Assembly: GCF_037042905.1 (NCBI RefSeq)
Contig: NC_087250.1
Span: 8,062,001 to 8,126,000, forward strand
Source: Lytechinus pictus
Lineage: Eukaryota
Direction of reading: 5' to 3'
Length of the DNA: 64,000 nucleotides
A model generated the notes under the pieces. That model searched no databases, was not told the DNA's origin, and saw only the letters and a list, made by a program, of their open reading frames with translations. Below, piece after piece: positions 1 to 34,100 of this stretch; positions within the stretch are counted from its first letter, which is position 1; each line of letters opens with the position of its first letter. The translations under genes and the position numbers were made by a program.

Positions 1-19
1 TCTTAGGAATGAAGTTTTG

Positions 20-1018
20 ACCATATTAAATTTCACTCCATAGCCAGATGTCTAATAATAAACAAGTACTGACCAGTTTGAACTTGACCCCATGGCCATA
101 TGTCTTAATAAACAAGTACTGACCGGTTTGAACTTGACCCCATGGCCATATGTCTAATAATAAACAAGTACTGACCGGATTGAACTTGACCCCATGGCCA
201 TATGTCTAATAATAAACAAGTACTGACCGGTTTGAACTTGACCCCATGGCCATATGTCTTCATAAACAACTACTGACCAGTTTGAACTTGACCCCATGGC
301 CATATGTCTTAATAAACAAGTACTGACCGGTTTGAACTCGACCCCATGGCCATTTGTCTTCATAAACAAGGACTGACCGGTTTGAACTTGACCCCATGGC
401 CATATGTCTTAATTAACAAGTACTGACCGGTTTGAACTTGACCCCATGGCCATATGTCTTTCATAAACAAGTACTGACCAGTTTGAACTTGACCCCATGG
501 CCATATGTCTAATAATAAACAAGGACTGACCAGTTTGAACTTGACCCCATGGCCATATGTCTTTCATAAACAAGTACTGACCAGTTTGAACTTGACCCCA
601 TGGCCATATGTCTTATAATAAACAAGTACTGACCGGTTAAAACTTGACCCCATGGCCATATGTCTAATAATAAACAAGTACTGACCGGTTTGAACATGAC
701 CCCGTGGCCATATGTCTTATAATAAACAAGTACTGACCGGTATGAACTTGACCCCATGGCCATATGTCTTCATAATCTACTGACCGGTTTGAACTTGACC
801 CCATGGCCATTATCTTAATAAACAACTACTGACTGGTTTGAACTTGACCCCATAGCCAGATGTGTAGTAATAAACAAGTACTGACTGGTTTGAACTTGAC
901 CCCATGGCCATATGCCTTAATATACAAGTACGGACCAGTTTGAACTTGACTCCATGGCCATATGTTTAATAATAAACAAGTACTGACCGGTTTGAACTTG
1001 ACCCCATGGCCATATGTC
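20..1018. repeat. About 51-bp tandem array (about 19-20 copies) derived from the 3' end and donor of exon 1143-988
   Basis: Unit aataaacaagtactgaccggtttgaacttgaccccatggccatatgtct is continuous with the exon. Confidence 0.95.
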
Positions 1019-1143
1019 CATTCACCAAGGCCCGGTATGATGAAGAGGATGATGAAAATAAGAAGGGCCATCTCTCGAACAATGCTGGCTAATCCGCGGA
1101 TGGAGTTCAACGACGAGTGTCTGTAGATCCACACACGGTAAGC
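988..1143 (-). CDS. TRPA1-like exon encoding S3 and the S3-S4 loop (AYRVW...EWTYGHGVKFKP)
   Basis: catatag| and CCG|gtcagt; hydrophobic helix. Confidence 0.85.
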
Positions 1144-4100: not shown

Positions 4101-7100
4101 TTCATGTTGTCGAGCCACTTGGTGCGCCCATCGGCCAACCACGTGTAGTTGGTGCCGTCTTCGTTTGTTTCTATGTAGAACGGCGGAGGAATGACCAGGC
4201 TATGTCCGGTCACCAGGATCACCAAGGTCAGCTGGAGGAACAGACTGATCCAGTATTTGAGCCGCGTTGATTTGTTCTTGTAGCGGAACATCAGGCGCAC
4301 GACCGGGTGATTTAGGAGCATTTTACTCTCGTCTTTCTGGATCTAAAAGAGGATAAAAATAAAGATGATGACGATGATAATAATAAAGCAATATTGACTG
4401 GCCTCGGGGCGCTATGACATATATCGCCCAAACTAGATTTATATCGCCCGAGTCGTAGACGAGGGTGATATCAATTTTAGTGGGGGCGAGATATGTCCTT
4501 TTGCCCCCAGGCCAGTCAATATTGCTATTATTAACCAAATCAGACATCTAGAGCAAAAATCGTTAAAATTCAGATATTTTAGAGTTTAAGAATGGGAATC
4601 TATTTTTGTCATCTTGAGCAGACTGGGCCTCAGAACTTTACCACTGTGATGTAATTGAAATGATGTGTCCCCGGCCTGGGGACGCAGAATCCAACATTGT
4701 CTCAACTTGATTAACATCGTGACGTATAGCACTGTGTGATTCATGGACGCTTACAAAAACGCGTAGAATACGGGGATGTTAGCTCTCTGCCTTATTGCCC
4801 GCTACATTTACACGCATTTTCTCATAGACTTTCCTGAGCGGGCAATAAATTTGTCTGTGGTTAAACAAGTGGAAACCGACCAACCACTTGATCACACTCT
4901 TAAGCAGGCAACAATGTATGAAAGCTACCCTGCTCAGATGTCTGATACGGTTAATGATAATACATATAATAATGATAATCATTACTATCATTATTTCTTT
5001 TTATCAATCTATGATATAATGATAAACATGAGGCGCTGATTATCTGGTTACACTTCGTAATTCTGAAGGTTCGTAATTCCAAAACACGTAAATTGCCTAT
5101 ACCTCGATGTTCGTTAATCCGAAAACGTAAAAGGGTTCGTTAATCCGAACATTTGTGGCGTTGTTCCGAAGGTTCGTTTTTTTCGAAGGTTCGAAAATCC
5201 GAAAACGAAATAAGGTTCGATGTTCCGAAGGTTCGTTAATCCAAAAACGAAATAAGGTTCGTTGTTCCGAAGGTTCGTTAATCCGAAAACGAAAAAGGTT
5301 CGTTAATCATTTCGTTTTCGGACTAACGAACCTTCGGAATTACGAACCTCATTACGTTTTCGGATTAACGAACCTTCGGAATTACGAACCTCATTTCGTT
5401 TTCAGATTAACGAACCTTCGGAATTACGAACTTTCGGAATTGCGAACCTTCGGAAATACGAACCTTCGGAATAACCGAACCTTCGGAATAACGAAGCTTC
5501 GGAATTACGAATGTATGCGGATTATCTAGTTCACTTTTCAGTGGCAAACTATATATTACGCCGGCTTTAGCTCGAGCTGCTTGAAGGCGCATTCAAGGAA
5601 TCAAGCCTGCTGGTTACCCATTCATCTCACCTGGGTTGAGTGCAGCACAATGTGAATCAACTTCTTGCTGAGGAAATTATGCCATGGCTGGGATCTGAAC
5701 ACATGACCCTCTGTTTCAAAGGTGAGGGTCAGAACCACTAGACCACAACGCTACAATATATACATGGAAATGTTTCCTCAACTGGCTAAACACAAAGAAA
5801 TTAACCATAAAGAAATGCATTCGTTGTCATGACAAAATAAATTAAAAAGCATAATGTAAATATTAACGAAAAAAAGACACATCACATGTTTACAATTTTC
5901 ATTTCCTTCTTCGGTGTTTTTTATCCATATATGAACAATATGTATAAAAATCTATCATTTCCCATAAAAAATTATTGAGGCAGTATTAACTAGTATTTAT
6001 CACCAGTATTACTAGACCCACTCCTGCTAATCCTGTTTATGATATCAACTAATGATTTAAAGCTCCTCTTGTGAAAGACCTGCAAAGTGTGAACGGACCA
6101 TTAGGGTGAATCTTGTTACATACCATGAGCCTTATTGGATGATTCTGAGCTCGGTAGACGGGGTCGGTCACATATATTACTGCGTTCTCTTTCAATCTCC
6201 CATCACTGTAGAAATTGGAGTCCTTTTGTACGAACAATAGGAAAATAAACAATTTCAGTCAAAATCATATCCCCATAAATGGTAGCAAAGAAAATTTCCA
6301 AGTAAAGCATATAACATATCTAATATATGATGAGCTCAATTGCAAAAAGGGGTTTGATCCATTTTTCATCAAATTTGATTTTTTTTTTGTCTCAATGTAT
6401 AGGGTTTTAGTAGCTCTCTAAGATGATACCAAAGAAAAGTTGAAATTCACATTAAAAAGTGAACAAAATTGGCAAAGAAAAATCACCTTTTTAGATCCAT
6501 TTCAGTTTGTTTGCAAAAGGGGCTAGATCCACAAAGGTAATTTTTGGAGAAAAAAAAAATATGCAGACAGGCAGAATTCTCTTATACCCAATTTTATGTT
6601 CACATGGTAGGGTATTTTATCATGACAATTTAGTTTCGCGTAAGAATATTGCAATATGGTAGAATAAAAAAACAAAACTCTAAATCAATTGGCACCTGAA
6701 TATCTTAATAATACCATCAAATTATACACACCCTCTCGTAATCTTCGTTCAATCACTGACACATGCAGACTTTGCATTCCCTTGTCAAAACTCTCCTCTG
6801 CCGAAAAACGTTTTGCTGTAGCAGCTGCCAAGACTTGGAATGCTATCCCTCTTTCAATAAGAAATGCTTCCAGTGTTCTTGGCTTCAAATCTTCCCTTAA
6901 GACATAACTTTTTCCTCAATAATGAATTTCCCTTTTTATCTTGAATATTGTAGTTGTTAAATTATTATTCATACATTGTACGCGCTATGGTACTTTTTGT
7001 TTTTAGCGCCTCTAAATATCCATTATTATTATAATTATTATTATAAAAAAAAAAATTCTTGGAATGGTCTGACGTGGATCTAACCCCTTTTGCAAATAAA

Positions 7101-10100
7101 TACTTCTTGAATGTTTTCATTTGAATATCATTCATGTATCACCATGCAATCTTCCATTTGTTATCAAAGGTGAATTTCAATGAACATTTTAACCAATTAT
7201 TGAATGTAAACGTATAAGTAAAACATGGAATGCAGACCTGCCAACCTCTGGGAATGAAAAACTGTATTCTGTGAAAAAAAAACTGTATTTTCAAAAAAAA
7301 AAAAATCCTGTTTATGATATCAACTAATGATTTAAAGCTCCTCTTGTGAAAGACCTGCAAAGTGTGAACGGACCATTAGGGTGAATCTTGTTACATACCA
7401 TGAGCCTTATTGGATGATTCTGAGCTCGGTAGACGGGGTCGGTCACATATATTACTGCGTTCTCTTTCAATCTCCCATCACTGTGTATTTCATAATAAAA
7501 TACTTGGCGCACTCGCTCATCGCGGCGCTCAAGCTGCATGCAAGCTAAAATGCGCACTGCTCTTGCAGATGGAAAAAAAATATATATTAAAACATGTGTA
7601 TATCTTCACCCTGGTTTTAACAAAATGATTGAAAAAAAAAAAAGTTACCTGAAATTACATTGATCTAATAACCATGTTTGTGACGTTTTATGAAATAGAG
7701 ACATATAGAGATTATTTTTCTCAATAAATTACGATTTAGTAAAAAAAAAAATTATTTTAATTATTATTTTTTTTTGCAAAAACGTACTAAATACGGCTAA
7801 AACGTACTGGTTGGCAGGTCTGGGAATGTTAAAGGCTTGCTGGGGAAATTTCATTATATTGTAAATACAATGGCTTTTAACTCAGTAAATAAAATCGCAT
7901 TGATCGATCCTTCTGATAAGTCTGAAAAAAAATCTATGAACCAGCAGGATTTGAAGCTCTCATCTACGGATTGCCAGTCAGCATATAACTAGGTTGAAAG
8001 CCATAAGTTGTATTTACAATATAATGAAACTTCCCCAGCAAGCCTTTAACATTCCTATTCATCGTCCATGGTGGACTAATATAAGAATGCATGTCAGATT
8101 GAATCAGGGGAACGGAGGGCTTTGTTCTTATTTCATCGTGACTGTGCCATGGACCAGTGATGGCCCGGTGGTACAGCCGCTGACCGGCAATCAGTAGATG
8201 AGAGGTTCAAATCCTGCTGGTTCCTCGATTTTTTTTTTGACTTATCAAATAGATCGATCAATGTGATCTTATTTACTGGATTGAAAGCCAATAAATTGTA
8301 TTACATATACTACACTACAAATTGGACGCATCCAAGAATGACACATCAATGGTAACTCTGGGCCCCGTCTTACAATGAGTTATGATTGATCTGATCAATC
8401 AAAACTATGGACGACCAGCAACGTAAACATCTATTATGCATGTTTGTTCAAAATATTTTCTAGCTATGATGTAAATTCATGCATTCATTATTTTCTTGAA
8501 AATTCACCGTGCTTCTCTTTGCATACAAAAGACATTGTGCAATTTTTTTAAAGAAAAAAGTTATGACACTGATGGATTTCCATAGAGTTATGATTGATCG
8601 TAACTCTTTGTAAGACGGGCCCAGGCTTCGCGATCTGACATGAGAATTGGGTAATCATGTAAGAAATTATTTGTATCCTACATATATGTAATTAATAAAA
8701 TTTAAAGGTCTCCGTCCTCTTGTTTTATGAGGGAGGCGCAACAAAAAGTACATCAGAAATAACTTCCTTCTCACTACGAAAACAGTGACCAGCAAATCTC
8801 GTACTACAGTTAATTACTGAGGAGGAGATAGGTGGGATTTCTTGCAGAAGGAAAAGACGCCATGGCTGGGACTTGAACCCACGTCCCTCTGATTGAAAGA
8901 CGAGAGTCGTGACCACTAGACCACGGCACCCCCTGACAGAAGTTATAAGCTACTGTGAATCCTTGCGCTCGATTGGCTGGGAGCTAATTAGTCAGTGAAT
9001 ACACCATGAAGTCCTCTCCATGGTCTTGTTTCACAAAGATTTAAGTATGACTTTAAGTCACACTTTAATGCTGACACGTACATGATATGCAACGCGCGAT
9101 CTTATTGATCACTACGCAGTAGTGCGCATCCTCTTGGCATGATCTGACCAATGTGGTCATGCCTTTTATGCCGCACGCAACGAGGCATTTAAGTGCGACT
9201 CTGATTAGGGGGTGTTGCAAGAAAATATTTGCAATCGATTGCAAATATTCTGTTGCAATCTTACAACTGATAGATCAAGTTTAATTGTAGCAAAGGAGAT
9301 CACACTCCATGTTTCGAGAAGCAGATTAGAAATCAATCACAGATTTGCAATTAATTGCAGGATATATGATTGATTTAGGCTCAAATAATAGACCTGCAAT
9401 TGATCGCAAGTTTCTTGCAGCACCCGATATGTCATACAGTACTCTTTGTGAAGCCCCCTGTAGTAATAACAAACTTAGCAAATTAAATTGAATGATTCCT
9501 GTGACTTTAAAGAGAAATTCCAGTATTTGCAGTAAACACTGATTTCATGAGAAAGTCTGTAAAACAAGGCTTAATTGTCAGTATATCATCGAGGATCTAG
9601 ATCTGGTACAGTTACATAAACTGAACTTTGTGAAATCTTGAAATCTACGCTGAAAAATGTTCACACTGAAGATCACCAACACAGATAGGCACACGTGGGA
9701 CAGTGTATTATTATTGCTAAAATAAAGACCCGACGGAAGTGACCGAATCCGCGCTTATTTTGCTTATTTCTCAGCAATTACACAATTTCTTCCAGAATCC
9801 TTTGGCACATATTTTTTATTCATACAAACAGACACTTAGGTGGTCATTATATTAGATTCTGTAAAAAGTCATTTTTAGATCGTTACCAAAACTGGAATTT
9901 ATCTTTAAAGTTGTTATTGTAAATTTGTTATCGTAAGTTTTATGACACCCTCCATGGGTCTTACCGATTCTTCTGCATCGTCGAGGTGGTAGTCCGCAGT
10001 CCCAAGTTGGCTGATCGTACGCATCAACATCCCGTAACCTCTATCAGCAAAGTTCCCTCGGCTTCCTGTAACAAATCACGAAGGGTAAAATATTGGATTT

Positions 10101-13100
10101 CTGTTAACCCTAGTGAAATAGGCCTGGAGCAGATCATGGATTTTCCATAAGGGGGAAATAAAGCCTTCACTCTTGGATGAAGGTTAGTTATGTCACAAAA
10201 GATTTGACAAGAAAAAAAAAAGGGTTTCATTTCAGCATGCCCCATATTTTCCATCCGAATATCTTTTTATTGCTGTCAAAAGGAGAGATCCATCACTGAG
10301 GTAGGCTCTCAGTACAAAAATAATAAATAATAATACAGGATTTGTATCGCGCACATACATGTATCCACCTTGCTAGGTACTCCTGTCGGTACCCATTAAA
10401 CTCCCCCGGGTTGAGTGCAGCACAATGTGGGTAAATTTCTTTGGAATGGAACCCATGTCCTTCAGAATGAAAGACAAGAGTCTTAACCACTAGACCACGA
10501 CGCCCCACAAAGGGGCATTAAAACTTTTCCCACCAGCAGCGATGTATAGTGCCACTTAAAGTCCTCAACAAATTTAATCTGGCCAGTTTCTGAACCCATA
10601 ATGCAACATTTTGTGCAGCATATTCCTTTAAATAACCTCACATCTGAAAACCAATACAAATTCATTCTGCCGACCCATTTTATAAAACAAATGATGCACG
10701 ACGTGAATTGAAATGAATGAATGGAAGATACATGTATCTTACTAGGGGTTGGTGAGGTTCGCATCCAAATCCGAAAACCAAAACAAATTCATTCGACCGA
10801 CCCATTTTATAAAACAAATGATGCAAGATGTGAATTGAAATGAATGAATGGAAGATTTCTTATTAGGGGTTGGTGAGGTTTGCATCCAAATTCATTCTAC
10901 CGACCCATTTTATAAAACAAATGATGCATGATGTGAATTGAAATGAATGAATGGAAGATATCTTACTACGGGTTGGTGAGGTTTGCATCCCAGTCCGAAA
11001 AACAATACAAATTCATTCTGCCGACCGTTCTTATAAAACCAATGATGCACGATGTGAATTGAAATGAATGAATGGAAGATATCTTACTACGGGTTGGTGA
11101 GGTTTGCATCCCAGTCCGAAAAACAATACAAATTCATTCTGCCGACCGTTCTTATAAAACCAATAATGCACGTTGTGGAAATGAAATAAGATATCTTACT
11201 AGAGGTTGGTGAGGTTTGCATCCAATCAGAAAACCAGTCCTCAAGGAGCTCATAGTCGACTTTGATCTTTACCGATGTTGTGTCGTCCATGTCTGTATCT
11301 GTCAGTCTTGTGATGCATTTATCAAGGACAAAACGACAGACACCTGAAATAAAAAAAGATCAAGTTACAGAATTCATTATCATTTCAAAATGATTTAAGC
11401 ATTGGGATTCACCATGTGAATAGTCGTGAATAGGAATGATGGGTTTGGTGTAATAAATGTAAGAAAATGAAAGAGGTATAGAGGAATTGAGAGGCATAAA
11501 GGCAAATAGTAGAGTGGTAATTAGTACAGTATCATTTCTTGGACACAAGTTCTGAAGAGAGAGAAATATTCAGATGAGACTGGGAGATAAAAAGGAAAAA
11601 AAAATGGTTGATTGAAGTAGGCAAGTGGGGATGATGTTTGTAATAATGGTGATGATGATGGTGGTGATGAAGATGGTGGTGATGATGATGATGGTGGTGA
11701 TGATGGTGATGATGATGGTGGGGATGATAATGATTGTGGTGATGATGATGATGATGGTGATGATGATGCTTGTGGTGATGATGATGGTAATGATGATGAT
11801 GATGGTGATTATGATGGTGATGATGATGTTGGTGATGATGATGATGGTGATGATGATTGTAATAATGGTGTTGATGAAGATGACGGTCATGATAATGATG
11901 ATGATGGTGGTGGTGATGATGCTGATGATGATGTTGATGACAATGGTGATGATGATGGCGATACTGATAATGATGATGACAGTGGTGCTTGTGATGACGA
12001 TGACAATGTGACTTACCTGGCATAGTTGTGATGAGTTTCCTCATGGGGGTAGTTTTGTTTGCTCCTTCGCCGGTAGAGTGAGTCATCAGATACCGCCACT
12101 TCTCTTGTGATAACAGAGTTACGGCAACCATTCTATTGGCCAAAAAAAAAATTCATTCAAATTAATTATTTATCAGGAAGCATTGTGGTGTGCTTGTAAA
12201 ATAAAATTTACATTCTAACAGTGCTTTTAATAGTACATGTAGCTAATCAAAATCATTGCAAAGATATGTTCCACTGCAACCTACTCATGATTACAGATAG
12301 AATGGTCCAAGCAATTCCTTCTCTTCACATCGCACTCTAAGAACTCCGTTTTGATTGGCTGCTGAGGCATGATACCATGGTGATGGGGCTCAGCAGCCAA
12401 TCAAAATCATGGTTACATGGTAAGCTTATGCTCTACTGCAACCTACTCATGATTATGGATAGCATGGTCCAAGCAAGTTCTTCTCTTCGAATCAAATTCT
12501 AAGAACTTGATATTTATCAATATATGTTTGTTATATGTTTGTATTTTTGTTGTAGGGCCTCCAAGGACAACATTATACCAATTACTGATGGAGCCACCCT
12601 ACTAAAAAAAGACTTATAAATAAATAAATAAATAAATTTATTGGCTGTTGAGTCAGTTTACCATGGCAATGGGGATCGCCAGCCAATCAAAATCATGTTT
12701 ACATGGCAGAATATAAGTGCCACTTACTCATGACCATTACGGATAGCATGGTCCAAGCAATTCCTCCCCTTCGCGTCACACTCAAAGAACTTGATTTGAT
12801 CCTGATCCTGCTCAAAGAGCATCTCCACAATCAGAATATTCCCTATCTTACAAGCATACATCAATGGGGTCATCTGCACAAGGTCAAAGGTCAACAAGGT
12901 CATTACAAATGGTACAAGTTGGAGGTAAGATAATCATTTAGCAATCATTTCATGAGCATGGAAGCAGACTTCAAGAAAATTTCTTACTTTATAGGCGTTA
13001 CATAAACAGGGTCATCTACACGAGGTCAAACAAGGTCATTACAAATTACGAGTATTTGAAGATGCATTAGTAGTTGGTGTTACATGTATTTCCTGGCTAA

Positions 13101-16100
13101 TTAGTTCTAAGCCAATTAGATAAATGGGCTTCAGTGAAAATCACTATTTGTTCATTGAAATGCTATTTGATTTTTTAAAGGAAAAGTCCACCCCAATAAA
13201 AATTTTATTTGAATAAAAAGACAAAAATCCAACAAGCGTAACACTGGAAATTTTATCAAAATCGGATGTATAATAACAAAGTTATGAAATCTTCAACTTT
13301 CACTTAATTTAGCAAAATAGTTATATGCACATCCTGGTCGGTATGCAAATGATGTGATCAGTAAAAATTGAAATATTGTATAATTCAAACAATAAAGACA
13401 AAAGAAAACTTCGGTGATGGACATCACTGAATCTCCCATTTGCACGTCACTGCATTGTGCATATAAAGCGAAACCTTAAAATGTCATAGCTTTATTTTAC
13501 ATCCAATTTTGATGAAATTTTCAGCATTACGCTTGTTTGATTTTTCTCTTTTGATTCAAAGCAACATTTTTGCTGGGGTAGACTTGACATTTAAGTGATG
13601 ATAATAAAAAATGACTTACCCCTTTATTGTCTTGAATCGTCACAAGTGACTTGTCAGTCTTCAGGAGAAGCTTGGTGGTTAGTTTATGGCCTTTTTTGAT
13701 CGAAAGATGAAGAGGTGTTTGTCCTAAACTATTCCTAATCAATCAAAGAAAAGAATGATTGAGTGACTTGTCTGTCTTTAGAATAAGGTAATTGGTGAGT
13801 TTATTACCCATATTGAAAGCAAGATGAAGAAGTGTTTGTCCTAAACTATTCCTAATCAATCAAAGAAAACAATCATTGAGTGACTTGTCTGTCTTTAGAA
13901 TAAGGTAATTGGTGAGCTTATTACCCATATTGAAAACAAGATGAAGTGGTGTTTGTTCTAAAACATTCCTAATCAATCAAAGAAAACAATCATTGTGATG
14001 AGTGACTTGTCTGTCTTGAGAAGAAGCTGGGTGGTTATTATTTTATGAGCAAGATGAAGTGGTGTTTGTTCAAAAGTATTCCTAGTCAATCAAAGAAAAG
14101 AATCATGATGATGATGATGATGAGTGACTTGTCTATCTTGGCGACTAGTTTATGAGCCCTTTTGAAAGCTAGATGAAGCGGTGTTTGTCCTAAACTATTC
14201 ACAACCAATAAAAAAAAAGAATCATTGTGATGCGTGACTAAACAGTCTTCAGGAGAAGCTTGGCGGTTATTAGTTTATGAGCCCTTTTGAAAGCAATATG
14301 AAGTAGTGTTTGTCCTAAACTATTCCTAATCACTCAAAGAAAACAACAGTGATGAGTGACTTGTCTATCTTTAGAAGAAACTGGGCGGTTATTAGTTTAT
14401 GAGCCCTTTTGAAAGCAATATGAAGTGTTTGTCCTAAAATATTCCTAATCACTCAAAAAAAACCATCATTGTGATGATTCCTAGTCAATCAAAGAAAACA
14501 ATCATTGTGGTGAGTAACGGGTCTGTCTTGAGAACAAATTAAGTGGTAAGTTTACAACTCATTTCGAAAGCAAGAAGAAGTGTTTGTCCTAAACTTTTCC
14601 TGATCACTCAAAGAAAACAATCATTGTGGTGAGTAACGGGTCTGTCTTGAGAACAAATTAAGTGGTAAGTTTACAACTCATTTCGAAAGCAAGAAGAAGT
14701 GTTTGTCCTAAACTTTTCCTGATCACTCAAAGAAAACAATCATTGTGGTGAGTAACGGGTCTGTCTTGAGAACAAATTAAGTGGTAAGTTTACAACTCAT
14801 TTCGAAAGCAAGAAGAAGTGTTTGTCCTAAACTTTTCCTGATCACTCAAAGAAAACAATCATTGTGGTGAGTAACGGGTCTGTCTTGAGAACAAATTAAG
14901 TGGTAAGTTTACAACTCATTTCGAAAGCAAGAAGAAGTGTTTGTCCTAAACTTTTCCTGATCACTCAAAGAAAACAATCATTGTGGTGAGTAACGGGTCT
15001 GTCTTGAGAACAAATTAAGTGGTAAGTTTACAACTCATTTCGAAAGCAAGAAGAAGTGTTTGTCCTAAACTTTTCCTGATCACTCAAAGAAAACAATCAT
15101 TGTGGTGAGTAACGGGTCTGTCTTGAGAACAAATTAAGTGGTAAGTTTACAACTCATTTCGAAAGCAAGAAGAAGTGTTTGTCCTAAACTTTTCCTGATC
15201 ACTCAAAGAAAACAATCATTGTGGTGAGTAACGGGTCTGTCTTGAGAACAAATTAAGTGGTAAGTTTACAACTCATTTCGAAAGCAAGAAGAAGTGTTTG
15301 TCCTAAACTTTTCCTGATCACTCAAAGAAAACAATCATTGTGGTGAGTAACGGGTCTGTCTTGAGAACAAATTAAGTGGTAAGTTTACAACTCATTTCGA
15401 AAGCAAGAAGAAGTGTTTGTCCTAAACTTTTCCTGATCACTCAAAGAAAACAATCATTGTGGTGAGTAACGGGTCTGTCTTGAGAACAAATTAAGTGGTA
15501 AGTTTACAACCCATTTCGAAAGCAAGAAGAAGTGTTTGTCCTAAACTTTTCCTGATCACTCAAAGAAAACAATCATTGTGGTGAGTAACGGGTCTGTCTT
15601 GAGAACAAATTAAGTGGTAAGTTTACAACCCATTTCGAAAGCAAGAAGAAGTGTTTGTCCTAAACTTTTCCTGATCACTCAAAGAAAACAATCATTGTGG
15701 TGAGTAACGGGTCTGTCTTGAGAACAAATTAAGTGGTAAGTTTACAACCCATTTCGAAAGCAAGAAGAAGTGTTTGTCCTAAACTTTTCCTGATCACTCA
15801 AAGAAAACAATCATTGTGGTGAGTAACGGGTCTGTCTTGAGAACAAATTAAGTGGTAAGTTTACAACCCATTTCGAAAGCAAGAAGAAGTGTTTGTCCTA
15901 AACTTTTCCTGATCACTCAAAGAAAACAATCATTGTAGTGAGTAACGGGTCTGTCTTGAGAACAAATTAAGTGGTAAGTTTACAACCCATTTCGAAAGCA
16001 AGAAGAAGTGTTTGTCCTAAACTTTTCCTGATCACTCAAAGAAAACAATCATTGTGGTGAGTAACGGGTCTGTCTTGAGAACAAATTAAGTGGTAAGTTT

Positions 16101-19100
16101 ACAACCCACTTCGAAAGCAAGAAGAAGTGTTTGTCCTAAACTATTCCTAATCAATCAAAGAAAAGAATCATTGTGATGAGTGACTTGTCTGTCTGAGAAT
16201 AAGTTATGTGGTGAGAAATGTCTTCAGGTAAGACATCAACAGTCAACTCATTAGTACAGTCAGTAAAACTCTTACTAGGGTTCTCAGAATGCATACTGGA
16301 TTAAGCATAATTTTAGATGCAATCTGCATAAATGGGTCAAAACTAGTATACAGGCACAAACCTTTGGTTTTCAAAATTCGCATAGTGCACATTGCAAAGT
16401 CTGAAGTAGTGAGACTAGACTCACTACATGTATGTACTGTGGCTGCCTCTTATTTGACAGACAGACGGAAAGTTTCGGGTCTACAGTAGTCTTTACTCCA
16501 GACAGGGTGTAATTGGCTAGAGTGTCCAATTTGAGTCTGCGCTTGCAGACTAGTCCAAAACTACAGATTCAAAGTCATTTCGGCCTACAAGTTTGAAAAT
16601 AATCCTATCTTACTGTTCACAGAGTCTGACATCATCATCGTCCTGGTTCTTCAGGATAGCTTTGGCCGTGTCTAAATGACCCCCCTGGGCGATCAGGTGC
16701 ATGATACTGTTATCTTGGGAGTCTTTCAGATGGAGAGAACGCCTGTGCCATGATGCAAACTCCAATAGACTCCTACATGTACATAAGAATGAAAACATGA
16801 ATTGATGACATTGTAACTGAGGGGTTATGGATCAAGATACAGGCATTTATTTAAACTGGGTTCCAAAAGAAACTGATCAAACTTTACAAGGGCGCTTCTC
16901 AAATTTCACTCAGTCAAAATGAACAATATTTTTACACAGGCTAGCTTCAATAATCTTTACTACACATATGTCAATAATTAAGAGATTGGTTCAATCACAG
17001 AGAGGTTATAGCCCCTCAAATCAATTGGTTTCAGAACCCAAAGTCATGAAATGGCAAAAGAACAACCACTGAAAATGAGATGCGATTAAACAAACTTCCC
17101 ACTTTATCACACATTTCCTTCACAGGCCACTTTAAGTGAATGGCTTGATCTCAAAGAAGCAACAGGAAGTCAAAATAAAAATGTTAAATGACTAGAAGAA
17201 TCACACAGGAACAGATCCCCGGGAATGTCCCGGTAAGCGAGGGATAATCTGAACTCAGCGTTTTTCTGTGTGTGTCTGAGTTAGATACACAGAGACACGC
17301 TCCGTGTTCAGATTATCCCCCACTTACCGGGACATCTTCGGGGGGGGGGGGGGGGGTGTTGTATGCTGCTATGTGATTGTTACAGTCATTTAAAATTTTG
17401 ATGTTAATTTCCTATAGCTTCTTTTTTGATTGAGCCAAGCACTAAAACATGCCAGTGAAGACATGTATAGTAAACTCAGAAGTTTGATTAGTCATGTCTC
17501 AATTTCAATGGTCTCTCTTTTGCCACTTTGCATGTTTCGTGACTTTGGATTCTGAAAACAATTGATGTGATAGGCTACACTCTCTCTGTGATTGAAGGAA
17601 TCTCTTACTGTGCTTAGTAAAGATTACTGTATAGAAACCATGTTATTCAAAATAGTAAATGGGCTACATGGCAAAATGGATGTAGACCAAATGTGACCAG
17701 CGACTCCAAAACCACCAATAAGTCGCTAGGGAAGGTTCTCTGTAATAGTCAAAATAGTAAATTGGTCTTCAAAAAGCCAAAATTTAAAAATTGGCTTAAT
17801 TAATATCTCAAAATTCATTTTGGTCAAGTTATTGTTGGTTTTGGGGTGGAAAAGGAAAGTAGAAAAACTGGATTTATTCCGATACTTACTCTGTCTGTCC
17901 TTTGGCTGCACAGAGCAGGATAATCTTCTCCATCTCCATAGATTCACATCCTGTACTGATGTCATCAAACCGGTTTAGCAACTCCTACAAGAGAGAGTTA
18001 AAGGTAAAAGAAAGTAGTTGCAGCAAACAATAATTTCATGAGAAAGTCTTTGAAATCAAGGTGAATGCCACCATATTATCATATATCTATTTCTGGTACA
18101 TTGAAATCACCTCATCTTTGTGAAATCATGAAATCTATGCTAAAAACGGATAATTCTGATGATCACTAACAAAAAAAGGCATATGCGGGACGATGTATTA
18201 ATATTATTTGGAATAATACCGGACATTTTATGAAATTCCGTGCTTATTTTGCTCATTTCTGAGCAATTACACATTTTCCTCCACAGTCATTTGGCACATA
18301 TTTTCTATCTATACATTCTTACACTTGGGTGGTCATTTTATTGGATTCTGTTTGGACTCATTTTGAGAACGTTACCACAACTGGTGTTTATCTTTAAAAT
18401 TATAAACACAAACAAACTTCCAAAGAAATTTACAAACAATTCTTCTCTAAATCAGGGAGGAAGATTTGGATCCTTTCTACATTAAATTTCAAGAAACTAA
18501 CTTGATTTTAAGGCATTTAATCTATTCAGTATACTTCTACATAAAATTTCCTGTCAATCCATACCAAATTCCGTCAGATTTTTTTTTATGTGTCTACTTT
18601 AAGGACAATGTAAAGGTACTCGGTAAAAATGTCAGCAGTATCTAGGACGCTTCTTGACTCTGCTGGTGGTGGTATACGGTCCTATGACATTTGCTACGGC
18701 GACAACTGCTCCGCTGTAAATTCCACACACTAAAGGAATGACCAACTTAAACCCTGGATATATTACTATACCCTATCATAAAACTAACACAAAACCCCTA
18801 TTCCAAACCTAACCCAATTGTCGGCAGAGCAAATGTCGTATCACCTGGTATACAAATGATAGAGGTAAAAAAAAGTCACAGGTAAAAGCAAACTGAACGT
18901 ATTACCAATGTCATAATTGGTATCTTTAAAACATGATACATAGATGAATAAATTAGACATACCTGAAGCACCAAAGAAAGATTTTTTTCGACTGAGATCC
19001 ATTTGATGAGTTCAATCAGGATGGATGAATCTTTGATGTGTTTGAGAAGGACAACCAGGCTATCGCTAGATCCTTTCAAAGCAGTGAACTTCAGCAGAGA

Positions 19101-22100
19101 TGGAGATCCGTCAACTTCGTAGTCATTTAAATTTAGTTTCACCTCCTTGTCATGACTGAAAATAAAATATAAATAATAATATTAATAAAAACGGCATAGG
19201 CCTATTTACCCAGGGTAGCCACTTCAGTTGCGAAAAATGTTCTCCCAATGGGCCTGCCCTGCAATTATTATTACCCCGACTATAGAGTACCGAAGTGATG
19301 ATGTCACAAAAAACTTTTTTAGCATTTTAGATACCATATTTTGGTAGAGCATGATGAAAAACCCCCACTACCAAAATTTGGTGGGAATCGGTCCATTGGG
19401 GCCTTAGATATGACCTCACGAATACATAATTAGCCCCATTGAAGTCAATGTATTATTGGTCTGGTTTTAAATATTAGGAACCAGGTCAATGATACATTGA
19501 CTTCAATGGGGCTAATTATGTATTCATGAGGTCATATCTTGGGGCCCCATGGACCGATTCCCACCAAATTTGGATTGTGGGGGTTTTTCATCATGCTCTA
19601 CAAAAAGTATGGTATCAAAAACCCTGAAATGCTAAAAGTGAAAACTGATGACATCACACTTCCATACTCTATAGCCTAGGCGCTCAAGCATGCAAGGAAT
19701 TTCTTCCTACCGGGTACCCATTCACCTCACATAGGTTGAGTGCAGCACAATGTAGATGAGTTTCTTGCTGAAGGAAATTACGCCATGGCTGGGATTCGAA
19801 CCCACGTCCCTCAGATTGACAGATTAAAGTCATAACCACTAGACTACGACACACCCACATATATAGGGAAACCAATATTTATATCAAAACAAGTAGGCCT
19901 ATAGAGTATACTTACATGTAGTTCTTCTTTAGTACGAACACATAACTTAGCAACTGGTATGAAATAATGTTATTCATTAATGAAAACGACCAACGTCAGC
20001 GTTCATCCGGTCTGACATATCAGACCATTTTAGTCAAAATATCGATGGTGAGATTTTTCACAGAAAATGAAAGAACAAGTCATACTCTATACATAGTTAA
20101 CTTTCTATCCATCGATTTATTTTAGTTTCGGAGAAAAGAGAGCATTTTCAAGACAATGGCATAAATCTGATTGGAAACGTGTACTGCGGCAGAGCAAACA
20201 ACAGCTGCGTGCATTTAATGAGCAAACATGCGGTCAGCAAACCTTTCTATCCGTATGCATTGACTTTGCAGATGAAAGAATGTTACCACAGTTTGCGTGT
20301 ATTGAAAATGCAATCAGGACTGGTGTATTCCCTATGATCTTTTTTTTGCACAGGGGAAATGTAAACCGCTTTAACTAAAATTACAATCATGTACAGTATT
20401 TCATTTGTGATATTTTCTCCTATTCTCAGTACTGTGTAAAAATTGAAATATCGATGTCAAGCAAATATCTAGCTTTTCCAACTATGTAGTTTTTCTGGCA
20501 ATAAAAATATCGTACGGCTGGGGACAAAAATGTGGAGATTACAGTAAACTTTTAATTCATTTTTGTCTGAAACGGGTTTGCGATGTCGTATCTGTGATAC
20601 AACGGTGCGGATGTACAGTACTGAGTAATTCTTGTTTATTACACACACACATACCTTTGATACATGATGCATATTTCTTCTGTGACTTCGGCATAATTTC
20701 CCCTGCAGGCATAGTGCAGAGGCGTCAGCCCTTTTGAATTCTTTGCATCGAGGAGTAGAGGGCAAAGGTCGTGGAGCATATGGAGGATATCGAGGTGTCC
20801 CTGTTTGCAGGCAGTGTGCATGATGGTAGATCCGTAGCGAGACTTGACGTCCAGAAGATAATTGGCAGAGGCATTTTCTTTCTGATCTTCTGGACTTACT
20901 GAAAAAATTATCAATAAAGAAATAAAATGTTATAATGATACTAAACTGTGGAGGATATCTAGATGTCTGTTTGCAGGCCGTGTGCATGATGGTAGATTCG
21001 TAGCGAGACTTGACGTCCAGGAGATAATTGGCAGACACACCCTCCTTTTGATCTTCTGGACTTACTGAAAAAATTTATCAATAAAGAAATAAAATGTTAT
21101 AATGATACTAAACTGTGGAGGATATCTAGATGTCTGTTTGCAGGCCGTGTGCATGATGGTAGATCCGTAGCGAGACTTGACGTCCAGGAGATAATTGGCA
21201 GAGGCACCCTCCTTTTGATCTTCTGGACTTACTGAAAAAATTCATCAATAAAAAAATAAAATGTTATAATGATAATACATGTAGGCTGTGGAAGATATCA
21301 AGGTGTTTGTGTGCATGATGGTTGATTCGTAGCGAGACTTGACATCTAGGAGATAATTGGCAGACGCATCCTCTTTCTGATCCTCTGGACTTACTGAAAA
21401 AAATTGTCGATAAAGAAGAGAAAGAGAGTATATGAATGATATCAAGATGTCAGTATGAAGGCCGTATGGATGACTGACTTGATGGTAGATCCATGTACGT
21501 AGCGAGACTTGACGTTGAGGAGATAATTGGCAGACGCACCCTCTTTCTGATCTTCTGGGCTTACTGAAAATAGTAATTAATGAAGAAGAGAAATATATAT
21601 TCTAGACTGTGAGAGATAGCAAGAAAAAAGGCTATGAACCATGCAAAAATTTTGCAGAATTGCTGCGATATTGATCGATTGCGCTCCGAAACAGAATAAA
21701 AATGGTTGCACCCATGCATGGGGATTACAATGCTTCAGGCTGATAAATTCAAGCGAGACAAGGCAAAAGCGATTTTGTGTCTCGCCCAATTTTTGAAAAT
21801 AACCAGAAATATCTTGATTTGCTAGGGCACGCAACAGAATTGTATCGAAACCATGACGTGTTTCCTCCGTTTAAGAAATACCCCACCAGGTTATAACACA
21901 GGAACCCCTTTGCCCTGCGTGTTATGTCAATGGGAGCTCAAGTGGGGTATATTCGACACCCCACTTTCAGTTTTTGGGAGAGTTTCATTTCTCTCTTTTA
22001 AACTGGGGAGGGGTGGACTGACAGCTGATAAGAGCTGATAACACACAGCAACCAATGATGACCACAGCGAGTGAAGTTGGATTGCAGCTGTCCACCTTAC

Positions 22101-25100: not shown

Positions 25101-28100
25101 AACGCCACAAATGTTCGGATTAACGAACCCTTTTACGTTTTCGGATTAACGAACATCGAGGTATAGGCAATTTACGTGTTTCGGAATTACGAACCTTCGG
25201 AATAAAGAACCTTCGGAATTACGAACCTTTGGAATTACGAAGTGTAACCGTCCTTTCTTACCTTCCGCATGTCACATCCTCTATGCTGACAGCCCGAAAG
25301 GAATCGCAAAGCGTACTTGACGTTGCCTTTTTTCAGGATGATGTAGAGGGGGGTGTTCTTGGCGGCATTGACGGCGAGGGGATTGGCTCCGTGCTTCAGA
25401 AGCAAGAGGGCGCTCTCAAACTGACCGTTGTGGCAGAGGATGTTGAGAAGGTTTGAATTGACCCTTCCAAACTTGACTGGTTGCTGTGTAGAGGGAACAG
25501 AATGAAAAGAGGTTTATTTCTTTCACAAGCCTAGCTCACACTTTTATGTTCTCAAGCTGCATATTGCTGCATTAGGGGAAAGCAGCAATACGCTGCCTAA
25601 AGTACCACACTCTACGCAGAAAAATGTTCGGTTGCAAACACACATTTGCGTACAAGCTCATATAAAGTTGCACATCATAAAACACAGTGATCCAAGTTAA
25701 AGCAAAGGAACAGTAAATACATGTACATGTAAATCAAAGCAGTAATAATTGCACACTCTAAATTGGCAATGCAATAAAACGAAATAACTATTTAAAATAC
25801 AAAATGGCATATTTTCATATGAATTTTGCCTTCAATATTCATTTTGACCCATGTTACATGTATATCCATATTTCTCTTTTTCAAGTATGAAAAGAAATAC
25901 AAATTCACCAATTATTGCCAATTTAGGGAACAAAGGTAAATAAATCTTGGCAATGTCATCAATACCTACATCCACTCGGATATGTGGATGTGAGAGTAGA
26001 GCTCTGACCACCATCTTCTGACTGGCAAATTGGCAACACATTGAAAATAATGAAATCACTGTTTAAAAATGCAAATTGGCAACAATTTCCTAAAATTCTT
26101 CATTCTCATTCATTTAGACTCACACATTTCCATTTTTTTTTCAAAGTATGAAAATAACAAGTGGAATGCCTCTGGCTGTCTCACCTGCATCACGCGATTC
26201 AATATAGCAGCAGTGCTGACGTTGAAAACTACTATAAAATAATTATTCACAAAAAACACCATTCATATAATGATACAATACTAAGTTCATTGATATTTGA
26301 CCTTGATCATGTGACCTAAAACTTGTCAGTGATACTTGATTACCTACCCCTTTATCCACATTTTATACACTATATCTATAAACTTTGAAAGTTATGACAG
26401 CAATCTAATAATTACCTCTAAAATGGCAAAATTTCAATGACCTTAAATGACCTTTGACATTAGTCATGTGATCTGAAACTCGCACAAGATGTTCAGTGAT
26501 ACTTGGTTACTCTAATGTCCACGTTTTATGAACTAGACCAATACACTTACAGAGATATGATGGTAATTCAACAAATACCTCCAACATGGCCAAAGTTCGT
26601 TGACCTTAAGGACGTTCCACAGTTAAAGTGAAATCCATGTCATTTTCACCAAACTTTGCACATAGATACTTTAGAACCTTAATATTCGAAATATGCAAAA
26701 ATTAACACAGGTCCATGTGCTTGATTTTTTGCTATAGAACTTCAAAGTTCACCCAAATTGATGTTCTTAAGAATTGCGCATTTAAAAGAATTTGGCATTT
26801 TTAGACCGCCCAAGATTACTACAATGAGTTTAAACCTGTATTACTCAGTCAAAATACATGAAAAAGTCATCAAATTTCGCAAGAGAGTTAATAATTGTAT
26901 CGTTAGAATGGAGAATATATTTATAGTGCTATTTGTTTGCAATTTTAAGTTTAACAGCACTGTCAGTTCTTAAAAATGGCGTAAAAGATAACAAAATCCC
27001 AATCTAAAAAATGTGAAATTTCAGTAACAAACTACAAAAGTACAATAAATGCTGCACTTTATTCAAAATCCATGTCATTTTCACCAAAATTTGTAGAGTT
27101 GTAGAGGAAGGTATACATAAGAGGAACAAACATTAAAAAATAGGGCTTCATGTGCTTGTTTTTAAACTATCAGCAATTTTATTAGAGCAAATGTGCTTTT
27201 TAGAACACCAAAAATGCGCCGAATGCTTTGTATCTATGTGAAGAAAAAATCAAAACCACTCTACCATTTATTCAAACTCGGGGTAATATTCGTGATTCTT
27301 GGCAGCACTGCAGGGTAAAGTATTTTGAAATTGTAGAGAATCTTTTTTTGAATGGTCCATGGAATAATTCAATATTTTAGCTTCATGAAATAACGCATCG
27401 GATCTGCAGTTAAAGTGCAGAAGATGTGAAAAATCAGCACATACCCGCAGCTAATTAATCACCTGTTCATCCATTGTGACGTCAGCGCGCAGAGTGTAAA
27501 CTATGCGCAGATCATAATGCGCACAAACATAACTGTGGAACGTCCTTAAATGACTTTTGACCTTGGTCATGTGACCTGAAACTAGGACGGGATGTTCAAA
27601 GATACCTGATTACTCTTACGGCCAAGTTTCATGAATCAAATCTATAAACTTTCAAAGTTATGATGGTAATTCAGCAGATACCCCATTATAGCCAAAATTC
27701 ATTGACCTTTTACGTTGGTCATGTGACCTGAAATTCGCACAGGATGTTTAGTGATACTTGATTACTTTTATGTCCAAGTTTTATGAACTAGACCAATAAA
27801 CTTTCAAAGTTATGATGGTAATTCAACAAATACCCCCAATTTGGCCAAAGTTCATTGACCCTAAATGACCTTTGACCTTAATCATGTGACCTGAAACTTG
27901 CACAGGATGTTCAGTGATACTTGATTACTATTATGTCCAAGTTTCATGAATCAGATCCATAAACTTTCAAAGTTATGATGGTAATTCAACAGATACCCCC
28001 ATTTTGGCCAAAGTTCATTGACCCTAAATGACCTTTGACCTTGGTCATGTGACCTGAAACTCAAGCAGGATGTTCAGTAATACTTGATTAACCTTATGTC

Positions 28101-31100: not shown

Positions 31101-34100
31101 TACATCATTGTCATTATCATAAATTATAACAATATCAAAGGTATAATTGGTTTTATAAAACGGGTTCAAGGATGTAGCCAATAGTAAGCGTGTATTCAAG
31201 TCACATGTTCTGGTTTAATTCTACGCAATCTCCTACCTGTGATATTTTGTGCAGCACTATGCATTTTGAAGGCATCATCTTACCCATAGTGCGTAAAAAC
31301 TGAGATGGCATCTGAAATACGCGTTCTTTCAAAGAAAAGGCTATCAGTACCAGCGCTTACTTAGGCCTGCATACTAGATATGTCTGTGATGTTTAATAGA
31401 AAGCAGGTACGGGTGTGACCGCTTCGTCTGTGCGCTCCCTAGAATATTTGGAGGGATTACAACACCCTTTCCACTACAAACTTACACTGCCGACCTGTTC
31501 TATGAAACAAATAATGCACATTTTAGAAATTGTGATGTTATTGACGATGCAGGCATCTCGGGTATTCGCAATAACATGAAAAGGTACTCGGTGCAAGTGC
31601 CTCGTGCCTTCACATATGGCAAATACCCTCAAATGCGCTGCATCGCCACAACAGACTCCTAAATATGCATTATTTGTTTTATATCATATCCTACCTGCCC
31701 CATGTCGGATGAGCATCTCAACCCAAGGTATTAAGACCTTCATACAGGCATAGTGGATAATGCTGTTACCCCTCCCATCTTTTGTGGCTATCTCCTTTGA
31801 GATCTGTTCCGGGGTGAGGTTCTCCAGGACTCTTTTGGCTTTCTCTAAATCAGGTTGCTTGGAGTTTACTAACTGGATACAAAATGAGAGAATTTTTTTA
31901 CATTCTTTTTAAAAATAAAGATTTCATTTCTTCAAAATAAAATCACAATAACCATTAATAATAGCAGCAATATAATAAATCATATACATTAGTAGAAAAT
32001 GAGAGGATTTTGTAAAAAAGAAGATTTTTAAAAACTGTTATTAATTTCACTACGCAGAAGTCACTTTGAGCAGTTCAATCTTAAGGTCTCAACGTTGGAA
32101 AGTTACAAATGCATAATTTCTATAACAAATTTACTATGAGCCAATGAGATGATTTCAGCAGCTAACTGTTATTCTAAATTTGTTATTGTATCAAGTTTTA
32201 TGAAACGGACCAGTGTCTTTCTGAGTTTGATGTTAATTGATCCCACCTAATAATCATATCTGATACACATCTGAAAAAAACACTCAATTATACACATACT
32301 GTACACACAAAGCTGCATCCTTATCTACGACGTAGTCTTGAAATACATTCCCATTAAAACAATGAATTATTTCCTTTGATTTTTTACAAAAAAATATATC
32401 ACATAGAAAATTTTGTGAAGAAATAACATGTTTCAGTCTTCCAGGCACTTCTGTTTTCAATATCTAAAACATTATACCTTACGAAGGGAGTTCCCCTCAT
32501 TGTAAGAAAGGAATGTACTCTTAGATTTGCATTTACAGTATTTTCTTCTCTTTACTGCACCATGAGTATCTTTTTATATGGATACCAGTGCATTTCCAAT
32601 GTCCATATCATTTTTATCATTATTGCAAGAATAAAATGTACTAAAATGTGCCTTTAGCACCTAACAAGGTGGATATGTGCGCAATATAAATACTCTATAT
32701 TATTATTATTTATATTAAGAAGGGAGTTCCCCCTCATTGTAAAAATATGTGAAGGGAGTTTCCCTCATTGAAAGAATAGAATGTGCCTTACAAAGTGACT
32801 TCCCTTCGTTGTAAAAGATGGAATGCACCCTAAGAAGGGAATTCCCCTCATTGTAAGATGCAACAAACCTTAAAGAGAGTTTACCTCATTGTAAGAATGG
32901 AATGAACTTTAAGGAAGGAGTTCCCCCCATTGGAAGAAAGAATATACCTTAAGAAGCGAGTTCCCACGGACTTTCCTGGCCAAGATTCTAAAGCTTGCTT
33001 TCCCGCCGGGCATCTCGGGCTCCGATTCCGACTGTGAACTTTCCGACTCTCCTTCGCTCCCGGAGTCATTGTCGGTGAAAGGGGGCGAGGGGGTACCCCT
33101 CCCTTCCTCCTCCTCATCACTGGAGTCTGTTGAGGAATCGCTTCGTTGACTCAGGTTCCACACTGCATGGTTTCGGAACCGCTGTGGGTACCGCTTCATC
33201 ATATTCTCGTAATTCCTTTGTTTGGTTTCAAGCGAAAGAAAAATAAATGAGGAAAACGTGAAATAATTGAATTCAATTTTATTCTATTCGGTAATACCAG
33301 GCCAGTCGGGAATACAACAACTCACGATAATAAGAATGAAATGACCAAATCCATTAAAAAGATTCATAAGTGGCTACTATAAAAAATTACCATTTAGATG
33401 ATTCCCCCCCCCCCCTGGCCATTGCGGGAAATTCAACGTCCTTCCAAATATGGCAATCTCTTAAATATGGGACATCGCTGGCTCTGCTGGGTGAATGGGA
33501 AATGAAGTTAGAGTCTAGATCTACCGGTATTGCAGTCAGACTCAGAGCAGAGGTGAATGGAGCTGAGCAAACACATCCGATTTTAGAGAAAAAAAGAAGT
33601 TGCTAATAATTATTATTTCCTGATTTCATTCACTTGTTCACTGCAACCACCCTGCCTATCTATGCAGTTCACTACACACACTTACAAAATTCTTCAAAAT
33701 ATCACTTTAGTTTGTAACCAAAAATAATTATTTCCATAAAATGTTATTTGTAATTTACTTTTCATAAAACTTGGGGATCATTTTTTTTTCACCAGAGAGC
33801 TCAAAAACTTTAATTTTGAACATTTTGTTGTTTAGGCCCTTTATTGGTGGTAAGTAATATTGCTTCAGAATTGTCAAAAAACAATCTCTTACTTTTAATT
33901 TAGAAAACAAAAATAATCAAAAGATTCAATTTACTTGAACAGAGCCAAGTAATGGAAACTGACCGTGTAAAAAAAAAAGGATTTGCCCCCAAGAACAAGA
34001 GAAAATTAGCCAAAATGCAACCTTATTTCACCACACAGGGAGTTCTAACACTAACAGAGAACAAGGTTATATCTAATCAGTTATATCATATCCTTGTTCA

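Follow-up and report, generated by a model that had tools for sequence, protein, structure and literature searches.

Why do the minisatellites of one sea urchin gene so often run across an exon-intron boundary, carrying the border of an exon and its splice site into the neighboring intron? The question is raised by a stretch of 64,000 nucleotides of Lytechinus pictus (assembly GCF_037042905.1, contig NC_087250.1, positions 8,062,001 to 8,126,000 of the forward strand; here called the window), which holds a homologue of TRPA1 on the minus strand. Same-strand local copies run across 9 of the 35 splice junctions of this gene, in 8 of its 18 exons. Seven are tandem arrays, at the donors of exons E18, E14, E12, and E1 and the acceptors of E11, E7, and E12, and two are single displaced copies, of the donors of E4 and E16. 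A first-pass annotation, made from the sequence, had reported junction-anchored arrays at no fewer than seven exons of one gene, and this is borne out. We consider it probable that these structures are minisatellites of the “mirage” type known from amphioxus, i.e., local tandem duplications that straddled a junction and were extended into the intron, and that they are by-products with a bias of birth toward junctions.

The exon at 3995-4342 (minus strand) has its best protein matches in TRPA1 homologues from L. pictus and Lytechinus variegatus (93-94% identity), and ankyrin and Ion_trans Pfam domains are present in the best-matching Lytechinus homologues. The gene model was built by tblastn of the 1251-residue L. 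variegatus TRPA1 homologue P0002 against the window, followed by joining at the best-scoring GT/AG pairs. All 18 exons, which run from 33202 to 988, are GT-AG and together form one uninterrupted reading frame (959 codons). The gene extends past the left end of the window, which has its first 18 exons rather than the 19 counted in the first-pass annotation. The junction coordinates given there (988, 11200, 12728, 28509, 32948, 13734, 20898, and 12873) all agree with the model, as does the remark that the real exon is always left intact. Transcript contigs of run X1 match E1, E5, E7, E8, and E10 with 0-9 differences. The X1 contig over E1 covers 32948-33216 and continues for 73 letters that have no match to the window there, which suggests an upstream noncoding exon, spliced ∼14 nt before the ATG (33203-33216 region).

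Junction copies were found by Tandem Repeats Finder (TRF), by 120-bp probes centered on the 35 junctions, by self-comparison of the window, and by unit-by-unit alignments, and the methods concur (Table 1). In the seven arrays, the head-to-tail repeat has the host exon-intron boundary inside its unit; the E4 and E16 copies are displaced. Unit lengths range from 40 to 181 bp, and the identity of copies spans 68% to 100% across arrays, in keeping with the earlier statement that the arrays differ widely in decay. None is a whole-exon duplication with both splice sites and the frame kept: every copy contains a partial exon and one site.

Table 1. Positions (window coordinates) and properties of the host gene, the junction copies, and other repeats
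Feature	Position	Strand	Unit and copies	TRF output	Identity of copies	GT/AG kept	Basis
TRPA1-homologue gene, E1-E18 (codons 1-959)	988..33202	-					tblastn + splice-site search
E18 donor array (junction 988)	1..1018	-	∼52 bp, 18 extra copies	38-1018, period 52, 19.3 copies, 89% matches	90-100% (unit alignment)	GT 18/18	TRF + unit alignment
E14 donor array (junction 11200)	10643..11232	-	112-121 bp, 4 extra copies	10657-11223, periods 103/121/224	86-96%	GT 3/4	TRF + unit alignment
E12 donor copies (junction 12728)	12241..12511	-	∼154 bp, 2 extra copies, decayed	absent	78-80%	GT 2/2	probes + alignment
E1 donor array (junction 32948)	32476..32965	-	∼40 bp, 3-4 weak extra copies	32755-32965, period 40, 5.2 copies, 68% matches	75-87% (probes + unit alignment)	GT 2/3	TRF + probes
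E11 acceptor array (junction 13734)	13645..16215	-	117-119 bp x 21.6		76-94% to real junction	AG 20/21	TRF, probes, unit alignment
E7 acceptor array (junction 20898)	20774..21624	-	167 bp x 4.7, 4 extra copies	span 20781-21570	83-94%	AG 4/4	TRF + alignment
E12 acceptor copy (junction 12873)	12974..13053	-	single, decayed		75% over 79 bp	AG kept	probes + alignment
E4 donor copy	25895..26031	-	137 bp, single		90%	GT kept	probes + self-comparison
Authentic E16 (nt 14-99) + donor + 95 nt of intron 16, copy source	6029..6209	-					self-comparison
Displaced E16 end + donor copy in intron 15	7304..7484	-	181 bp, single		100% to 6029-6209		self-comparison
Small intronic duplications	24594-24755; 30919-31032; one pair		74 bp x 2.2; 70 bp x 1.6; 60-bp pair				tiling + self-comparison
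Dispersed satellite (TGACCTTTGACCT-rich)	1528-2612; 22385-24131; 26283-28367		∼152 bp, arrays in three introns
16- + 42-bp sub-repeat element (TTCGGAATTACGAACC type)	5061-5511; 24810-25241; 43481-44006		3 copies

On the donor side, the E18 unit consists of the last 24-33 nt of the exon, the donor CCG/GTCAGT (the slash marks the junction), and ∼20 nt of intron, and its array reaches the window edge. The E14 unit likewise joins the last 24-33 nt of its exon to the donor TA/GTAAGA and intron, and the E12 donor copies, whose authentic unit is 12637-12800, hold ∼70 nt of exon end, the donor, and ∼90 nt of intron. The E1 array is weak and old; its unit contains the last 18 nt of the exon, the donor AAG/GTATAT, and intron, with copies at 32715-32881 and 32476-32523. 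A (CAT)n/(ATG)n microsatellite of ∼111 units (11625-12009) begins in the intron, within ∼10-40 bp of the donor of E13 (12017); it adjoins this junction without spanning it, and on the gene strand it would read as a long histidine run.

Near the E18 junction, the partial L. pictus model P0001 passes from ...IIPGLGEW directly to DPFHTMGNS (compared with window positions 988-1143) and lacks the last 10 residues of E18, which are the portion repeated in the array, and ∼70 more residues. This gap may be a gene-prediction casualty of the junction array, or P0001 may be another paralogue. Paralogue P0003 (40% identity, 157 residues) at first seemed to read through the E18 array; this was rejected, as the protein there consists of the ordinary next exons.

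On the acceptor side, the E7 unit consists of 67 nt of intron end with TTTTTTCAG and ∼100 nt of exon start, and an 11-nt GATATCCTCCA is present at both unit ends. The identity of the four E7 copies is 94, 92, 90, and 83% with rising distance from the exon. The E11 array has two parts: older copies adjoining the exon (13813-14471), which are 82-94% identical to the real junction, and a young block far from it (14478-16212), in which 14.6 copies are 98% alike and 76-89% identical to the real junction. Within the older part, copies farther from the exon are less identical to the authentic unit (Spearman rho −0.81, P = 0.05), and the young homogenized block distant from the exon is ordinary minisatellite turnover. 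The single E12 acceptor copy covers the acceptor, with the intron end before it and ∼40 nt of exon start after it.

Neither displaced copy is in tandem with its source. The E4 copy, made of 62 nt of exon end, the donor, and 75 nt of intron, lies 2.5 kb downstream of the authentic unit (28434-28570), and the high-copy ∼152-bp satellite occupies the space between them. The E16 copy lies 1275 bp upstream of its source, has neither the acceptor nor the first 13 nt of the exon, and is new relative to the first-pass annotation. At its ends, neither a target-site duplication nor microhomology is visible, and the copy may have arisen very recently or be a duplication made in assembly. Retroposition was rejected for this copy, its A-run being on the wrong side and a target-site duplication not being visible.

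Most dimensions proposed in the first-pass annotation were close to those measured: ∼51 bp x 19-20 at E18 (TRF, 52 bp x 19.3), ∼120 bp x 5-6 at E14 (∼121 bp, 5 units in all), ∼160 bp x 3 at the E12 donor (∼154 bp, 2 extra copies), 119 bp x ∼21 at E11 (117-119 bp x 21.6), ∼166 bp x 5 at E7 (167 bp x 4.7), and one extra copy at the E12 acceptor (79 bp, 75%). At E1, the array and its 40-bp unit stand, whereas seven copies is generous (TRF, 5.2 copies, 68% matches). At the E4 donor (28509), there is indeed a copy of the junction, but as one 137-bp copy 2.5 kb away and not as a twofold tandem of ∼270 bp.

Several lines of evidence place the origin of these arrays at the junctions themselves. First, in searches of the 64-kb window, the units of each array match only their own array, and the arrays are mutually unrelated, as the earlier annotation had claimed. 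Second, reads were mapped to positions 16230-33300 from two raw RNA runs, one contig run of organism A, and one DNA contig run of organism B, the stretch having been set beforehand to omit the long homogeneous E11 and E18 arrays (E14 and E12 also lie outside it). In the organism B DNA contigs, the bins of the E7 and E1 arrays have a depth of ∼30-60, like other single-copy bins, and satellite bins reach 1e4 to 1e6. Third, the occurrence at several sites and in high copy number that characterizes transposon-borne satellites is seen in the 152-bp and 16/42-bp families and not in the junction arrays; the 152-bp stretches concerned are 1528-2612, 22385-23010, and 26283-28367. Every array originated where it stands, from the junction that it spans, and the arrays arose repeatedly, at very different times (68% to 100% identity). 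Two other sources were rejected: the periodicity of ankyrin repeats, since the repeats also take in intron sequence and none of E18, E14, and E1 is an ankyrin exon, and the recruitment of exon borders from older arrays, the exon ends being conserved in Strongylocentrotus proteins.

The number of junctions involved was compared with chance under a null model of seeds, in which arrays were collapsed to one unit and units of the same length were placed uniformly in the collapsed gene, wholly exonic placements being excluded. Of the 10 TRF-only arrays, 5 run across a junction where 1.25 would be expected (P = 4e-3); with blast-only arrays included, the figures are 7 of 16 and 2.44 (P = 5e-3). Non-transposon arrays depart furthest from the null (7 of 9, against 1.14 expected; P = 1e-5), which agrees with the first-pass impression that almost all minisatellites unrelated to transposons straddle junctions. 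Young arrays alone show the same tendency (4 of 6; P = 3e-3), and simple better survival beside exons is therefore disfavored. When the gene was tiled sensitively with 553 probes, no further non-transposon local duplication family appeared in introns beyond 2-3 small items. An excess of arrays at junctions is thus probable for this gene; a multi-exon control gene was sought at 34-64 kb of the window (141 open reading frames [ORFs] scanned against Pfam), and none was present there.

Most of the decoy splice sites carried by the copies retain their dinucleotides (GT in 27 of 29 decoy donors and AG in 25 of 26 decoy acceptors). The splice motifs of the decoys depart from the authentic sequence at 58 of 606 positions, versus 572 of 3749 in the remainder of the units, and the decoys are therefore not being knocked out, although the copies are not independent. 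Among 44 decoys located by motif, use would add a frameshift and/or an in-frame stop in 40 and would shift the frame without a stop in the added part in 3; the sole decoy that is in frame and open is that of E18 at +102 nt. The X1 contigs look like spliced transcripts. One links E5 to a piece whose end is precisely at 20898, with 94 letters, the length of E6, in between; in another, a piece stops precisely at 32948, the E1 donor; and a third links E8 and E10 through 95 letters, the length of E9. The ends at 20898 and 32948 therefore indicate use of the authentic E7 acceptor, which lies behind four near-identical decoys, and of the authentic E1 donor. Raw RNA depth over exons was ∼0-5, and the joints and loose ends in the read mapping came mostly from dispersed repeats. 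A protein search with the ORF of an E7 decoy unit (21065-21241, minus strand), directed at the E7 array in other assemblies, gave no candidate and is uninformative either way.

The bias toward junctions looks real and appears to be due to where duplications are born, and not to better survival or selection for decoys. The first duplication probably arose through slippage during replication or through break repair, in either case between short direct repeats such as the 11-nt repeat at the ends of the E7 unit, and later growth probably proceeded by unequal exchange or out-of-register strand annealing. The identity gradients of E7 and the older part of E11 suggest that new copies were added at the exon end. 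Tolerance probably follows because only the site contiguous with the remainder of the exon yields a well-defined exon, through exon definition at acceptors and, at donors, through preference for the 5′ site lying farthest upstream, in the manner of human F7. A transcript spliced at a decoy would nearly always carry a frameshift or stop and hence be removed. With arrays tolerated and decoy transcripts removed in this way, the arrays would be by-products and not devices.

Several points weigh against this reading. The statistics are post hoc and concern a single gene in a window picked for its pattern. With the intron target halved, P becomes 1e-3 for the non-transposon arrays and 0.06-0.11 for the all-array sets, and with the target at one third it ranges from 0.01 to 0.4. 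The division into transposon and non-transposon arrays is based on one 64-kb window and 17 kb of read depth. Gene conversion with a constrained authentic unit would give the same gradients at E7 and E11 as the addition of copies at the exon end. The lower divergence of the decoy motifs, in copies that are not independent, could hint at constraint. The evidence on splicing covers two of the nine junctions and comes from assembled contigs, which drop rare isoforms; near-identical donors stand in series at E18 (18), E14 (3-4), and E12 (2), and usage was seen for the weak E1 array only, the acceptor that pairs with the E18 donor falling beyond the window. The E18, E14, E12, and E11 arrays lie outside the mapped stretch, and the lengths of all the arrays are those of the assembly. 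Finally, neither the E4 copy (2.5 kb off) nor the E16 copy (100% identical) is tandem, and both may have an origin other than that of the arrays.

The alternative that survives best is a mutational process aimed at exon borders, repeatedly seeding copies beside the exon, which we regard as possible but rather less than an even prospect. It could take the form of repair synthesis or template switching that begins in the conserved exon and aborts at haplotype divergence, of breaks at the edges of exon-positioned nucleosomes, or of polymerase pausing at splice sites. The in-gene excess, which includes young arrays, the repeated hits on the same junctions over time, and the fall of identity with distance at E7 and older E11 are as such a process would have it. 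In the literature searched, amphioxus are the only other animals for which recurrence is reported. In addition, organism B DNA contigs match the locus at ≥90% essentially only in exons, which are thus islands of homology. Against it, there is no direct evidence of mechanism, and germ line transcription of a sensory channel gene is unlikely, which would weaken the versions coupled to splicing, R-loops, or pausing. No single ruler, such as a nucleosome, accounts for units of 40-181 bp, and the placement of the junction inside the unit does not depart from a uniform distribution (Kolmogorov-Smirnov P = 0.36, n = 9), as a pure filter predicts. The exon-border-biased duplication proposed in the first-pass annotation fits the excess and the gradients of this gene and, with one gene chosen post hoc, is a hypothesis; the interpretation given there is thus supported in part.

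Amphioxus and sea urchins are both extremely polymorphic, and sea urchin genomes are very heterozygous. This polymorphism and the restriction of organism B matches essentially to exons are the reasons for the cause of the bias that we favor, speculatively: repair synthesis anchored in the exon, which slips where diverged haplotypes cease to match. It is a bolder and rather doubtful proposition that, in hyper-polymorphic marine deuterostomes such as these, exon borders are true hotspots of duplication birth, the conserved exon being the only homology anchor for break repair or replication restart, which slips at the haplotype divergence of the intron.

A chance cluster combined with a selection filter is unlikely, though it has some force. 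Duplications would be born uniformly, exonic ones would be purged and junction-straddling ones would survive, and this gene would have been noticed for its unusual share. Selection alone accounts for the real exon always being intact, and, given 35 junctions and units 120-170 bp long, the probability that any one seed overlaps a junction is already 15-20%. When the intron space is halved or reduced to one third, significance is lost in the all-array tests (P 0.06-0.4), and the window was chosen post hoc out of a very large scan. At the present intron length, however, P values are about 1e-5 to 4e-3, and ∼2-3 small non-transposon duplications in ∼24 kb of intron stand against nine at junctions. 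The bias of the young arrays also argues against a filter, as does the recurrence in several amphioxus genes, to which Ebner et al. (2010, PMC3087553) drew attention independently.

The first-pass annotation had also suggested that banks of decoy or alternative splice sites are being retained, and selection for such banks, in which repeated U1 or U2AF sites would tune splicing efficiency, dampen expression by way of unproductive splicing, or supply alternative isoforms, is now disfavored and appears very improbable. The high proportion of intact GT and AG and motifs mutated no more than the remainder of the unit are compatible with it, and some human junction minisatellites supply used pseudo-sites (IFI6 and CBS; PMC1557585). 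Young copies, however, are expected to be intact without selection. Only 1 of the 44 decoys keeps the frame open, which excludes protein diversity, and unit, copy number, and age differ wildly among arrays, several of which are decaying (68-80%). Three decoys have already been destroyed, a donor each at E14 and E1 and an acceptor at E11; the authentic E7 and E1 sites are those found in transcript contigs, and amphioxus splicing is regular according to PMC3087553.

Least probable of all is an assembly artifact, in which diverged haplotypes or noisy long reads were merged into false tandem duplications with conserved exons as overlap anchors: the high heterozygosity of sea urchins, the E16 copy (100% over 181 bp without a flanking signature), the one-extra-copy cases, which resemble haplotype retention, and the best of 24 sequencing runs sharing a fraction of 0.13 of sampled words would agree with it, but arrays of 5-22 regular units that diverge by degrees, from 68% to 98%, and have internal substructure are unlike haplotype duplication, exons and frame are perfect, and the amphioxus structures were confirmed by PCR (polymerase chain reaction) or resequencing according to PMC3087553 and PMC3902484.

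The window holds other repeats and a possible second gene. The ∼152-bp satellite has a very high depth in the runs of both organisms, with strongly strand-biased RNA reads in run X19, and is probably carried by a transposon. The two halves of the 16/42-bp element are in opposite orientations, as in a foldback element or a miniature inverted-repeat transposable element. Its copy at 43481-44006 is flanked by direct repeats of ∼800 bp (41138-41921 and 44610-45403; 92% identical, 3.5 kb apart), which may be long terminal repeats. A very high-copy element at 19650-20219, with strand-biased X19 RNA (1475 versus 136) and many reads cut at 19812, is probably an expressed short interspersed repeat; it has no tRNA or Rfam match, and Rfam and tRNA scans of the whole window gave none either. 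Two short ORFs at 60200-61915 (minus strand) have weak matches to the CD225/interferon-induced transmembrane protein domain (E = 2e-5 and 6e-3), both under the Pfam cutoff, and the pair may be a small two-exon gene.

Junction-spanning minisatellites are known from a few hand-annotated genes, and their origin is unexplained. Their presence at nine junctions of one echinoderm gene, on both sides of exons and over a wide range of ages, suggests that the phenomenon is not specific to amphioxus. Array ends inside exons are a countable signal that can be used genome-wide in well-assembled sea urchin genomes. If the bias is true, it bears on the choice of splice site among identical competitors, on the birth of new introns and shifted exon borders, and on whether the conservation mosaic of exons and introns shapes mutation in very polymorphic genomes. 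If exon borders are indeed hotspots, mirage arrays would be the trace of a junction-targeted mutation that supplies spare splice sites for intron sliding and gain. In practical terms, junction arrays can mislead gene predictors and, at exon borders, the calling of variants from short reads.

The first-pass annotation knew of no standard feature class for these arrays, but counterparts have been described in amphioxus, as mirage minisatellites, and in humans. According to Ebner et al. (2010, PMC3087553), amphioxus mirages have units of 150-160 bp with copies 81-100% identical, at 5′ and 3′ boundaries, and occurred as 6 versus 3 units in two haplotypes with regular splicing. The same text cites Canestro et al. 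2002 for the mirages of Adh3, which are somatically unstable and have 10-72-bp units, calls the mechanism unclear and the phenomenon perhaps general in cephalochordates, and proposes mirages as raw material for new introns. Genes with mirages are Adh3 and the globins BflGb6 and BflGb9, to which PMC3902484 adds PGBD5 and troponin C. The L. pictus arrays share with them a tandem unit that contains the boundary, on either side of exons, reiterated AG or GT that most copies keep, an origin in place (here within the 64-kb window), the involvement of several genes or junctions, and concerted evolution that takes in the array but leaves out its edge; amphioxus units are of similar size (10-160 bp), with copies 81-100% alike, and splicing there is regular. 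Unlike in amphioxus, the host is an echinoderm, nine junctions are affected in one gene, arrays reach up to 22 units and 2.5 kb, and some TRPA1 copies are far more decayed (68-80%). Copy number polymorphism, a hallmark of minisatellites, and somatic instability are reported in amphioxus, whereas the sea urchin arrays are known from one assembly.

In humans, as described in PMC1557585, the first monomer of certain minisatellites lies over an exon-intron boundary: F7 intron 7 (37 bp), IFI6/6-16 intron 2, CBS intron 13 (31 bp), LMNB2 (100 bp), and PDGF intron 4 (81 bp). Usually, only the most upstream donor is used in these cases. The F7 type, in which the first monomer holds the exon end and the donor and identical pseudo-donors follow, is matched in structure by E18, E14, E12, and E1. 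Unlike the human cases, which in that account have a single array per gene and are all donor sided, the sea urchin gene has acceptor arrays as well, and these are its largest.

A full-text literature search found no report of such arrays in echinoderms. Intron gain is also said to occur by tandem duplication across AG/GT, in “intron-breeding” arrays, reportedly under the Rogers model and in work of Zhuo et al. in 2007 and Gao and Lynch in 2009. There too, a local duplication carries splice signals along, but the sea urchin arrays have formed neither a new intron nor a new exon, and each unit has a partial exon and one kind of site, derived from the authentic one. With tandem exon duplication, as in mutually exclusive exons, they share the local duplication of coding sequence and flanking intron; in that case, however, the whole exon is copied with both sites and the frame kept, whereas the sea urchin copies are truncated and have one site, and 43 of the 44 decoys would, if used, break the frame or meet a stop. 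The junction arrays of the L. pictus TRPA1 homologue are thus mirage-type minisatellites, a known if obscure class, and what is new is the phylum and their density in one gene.

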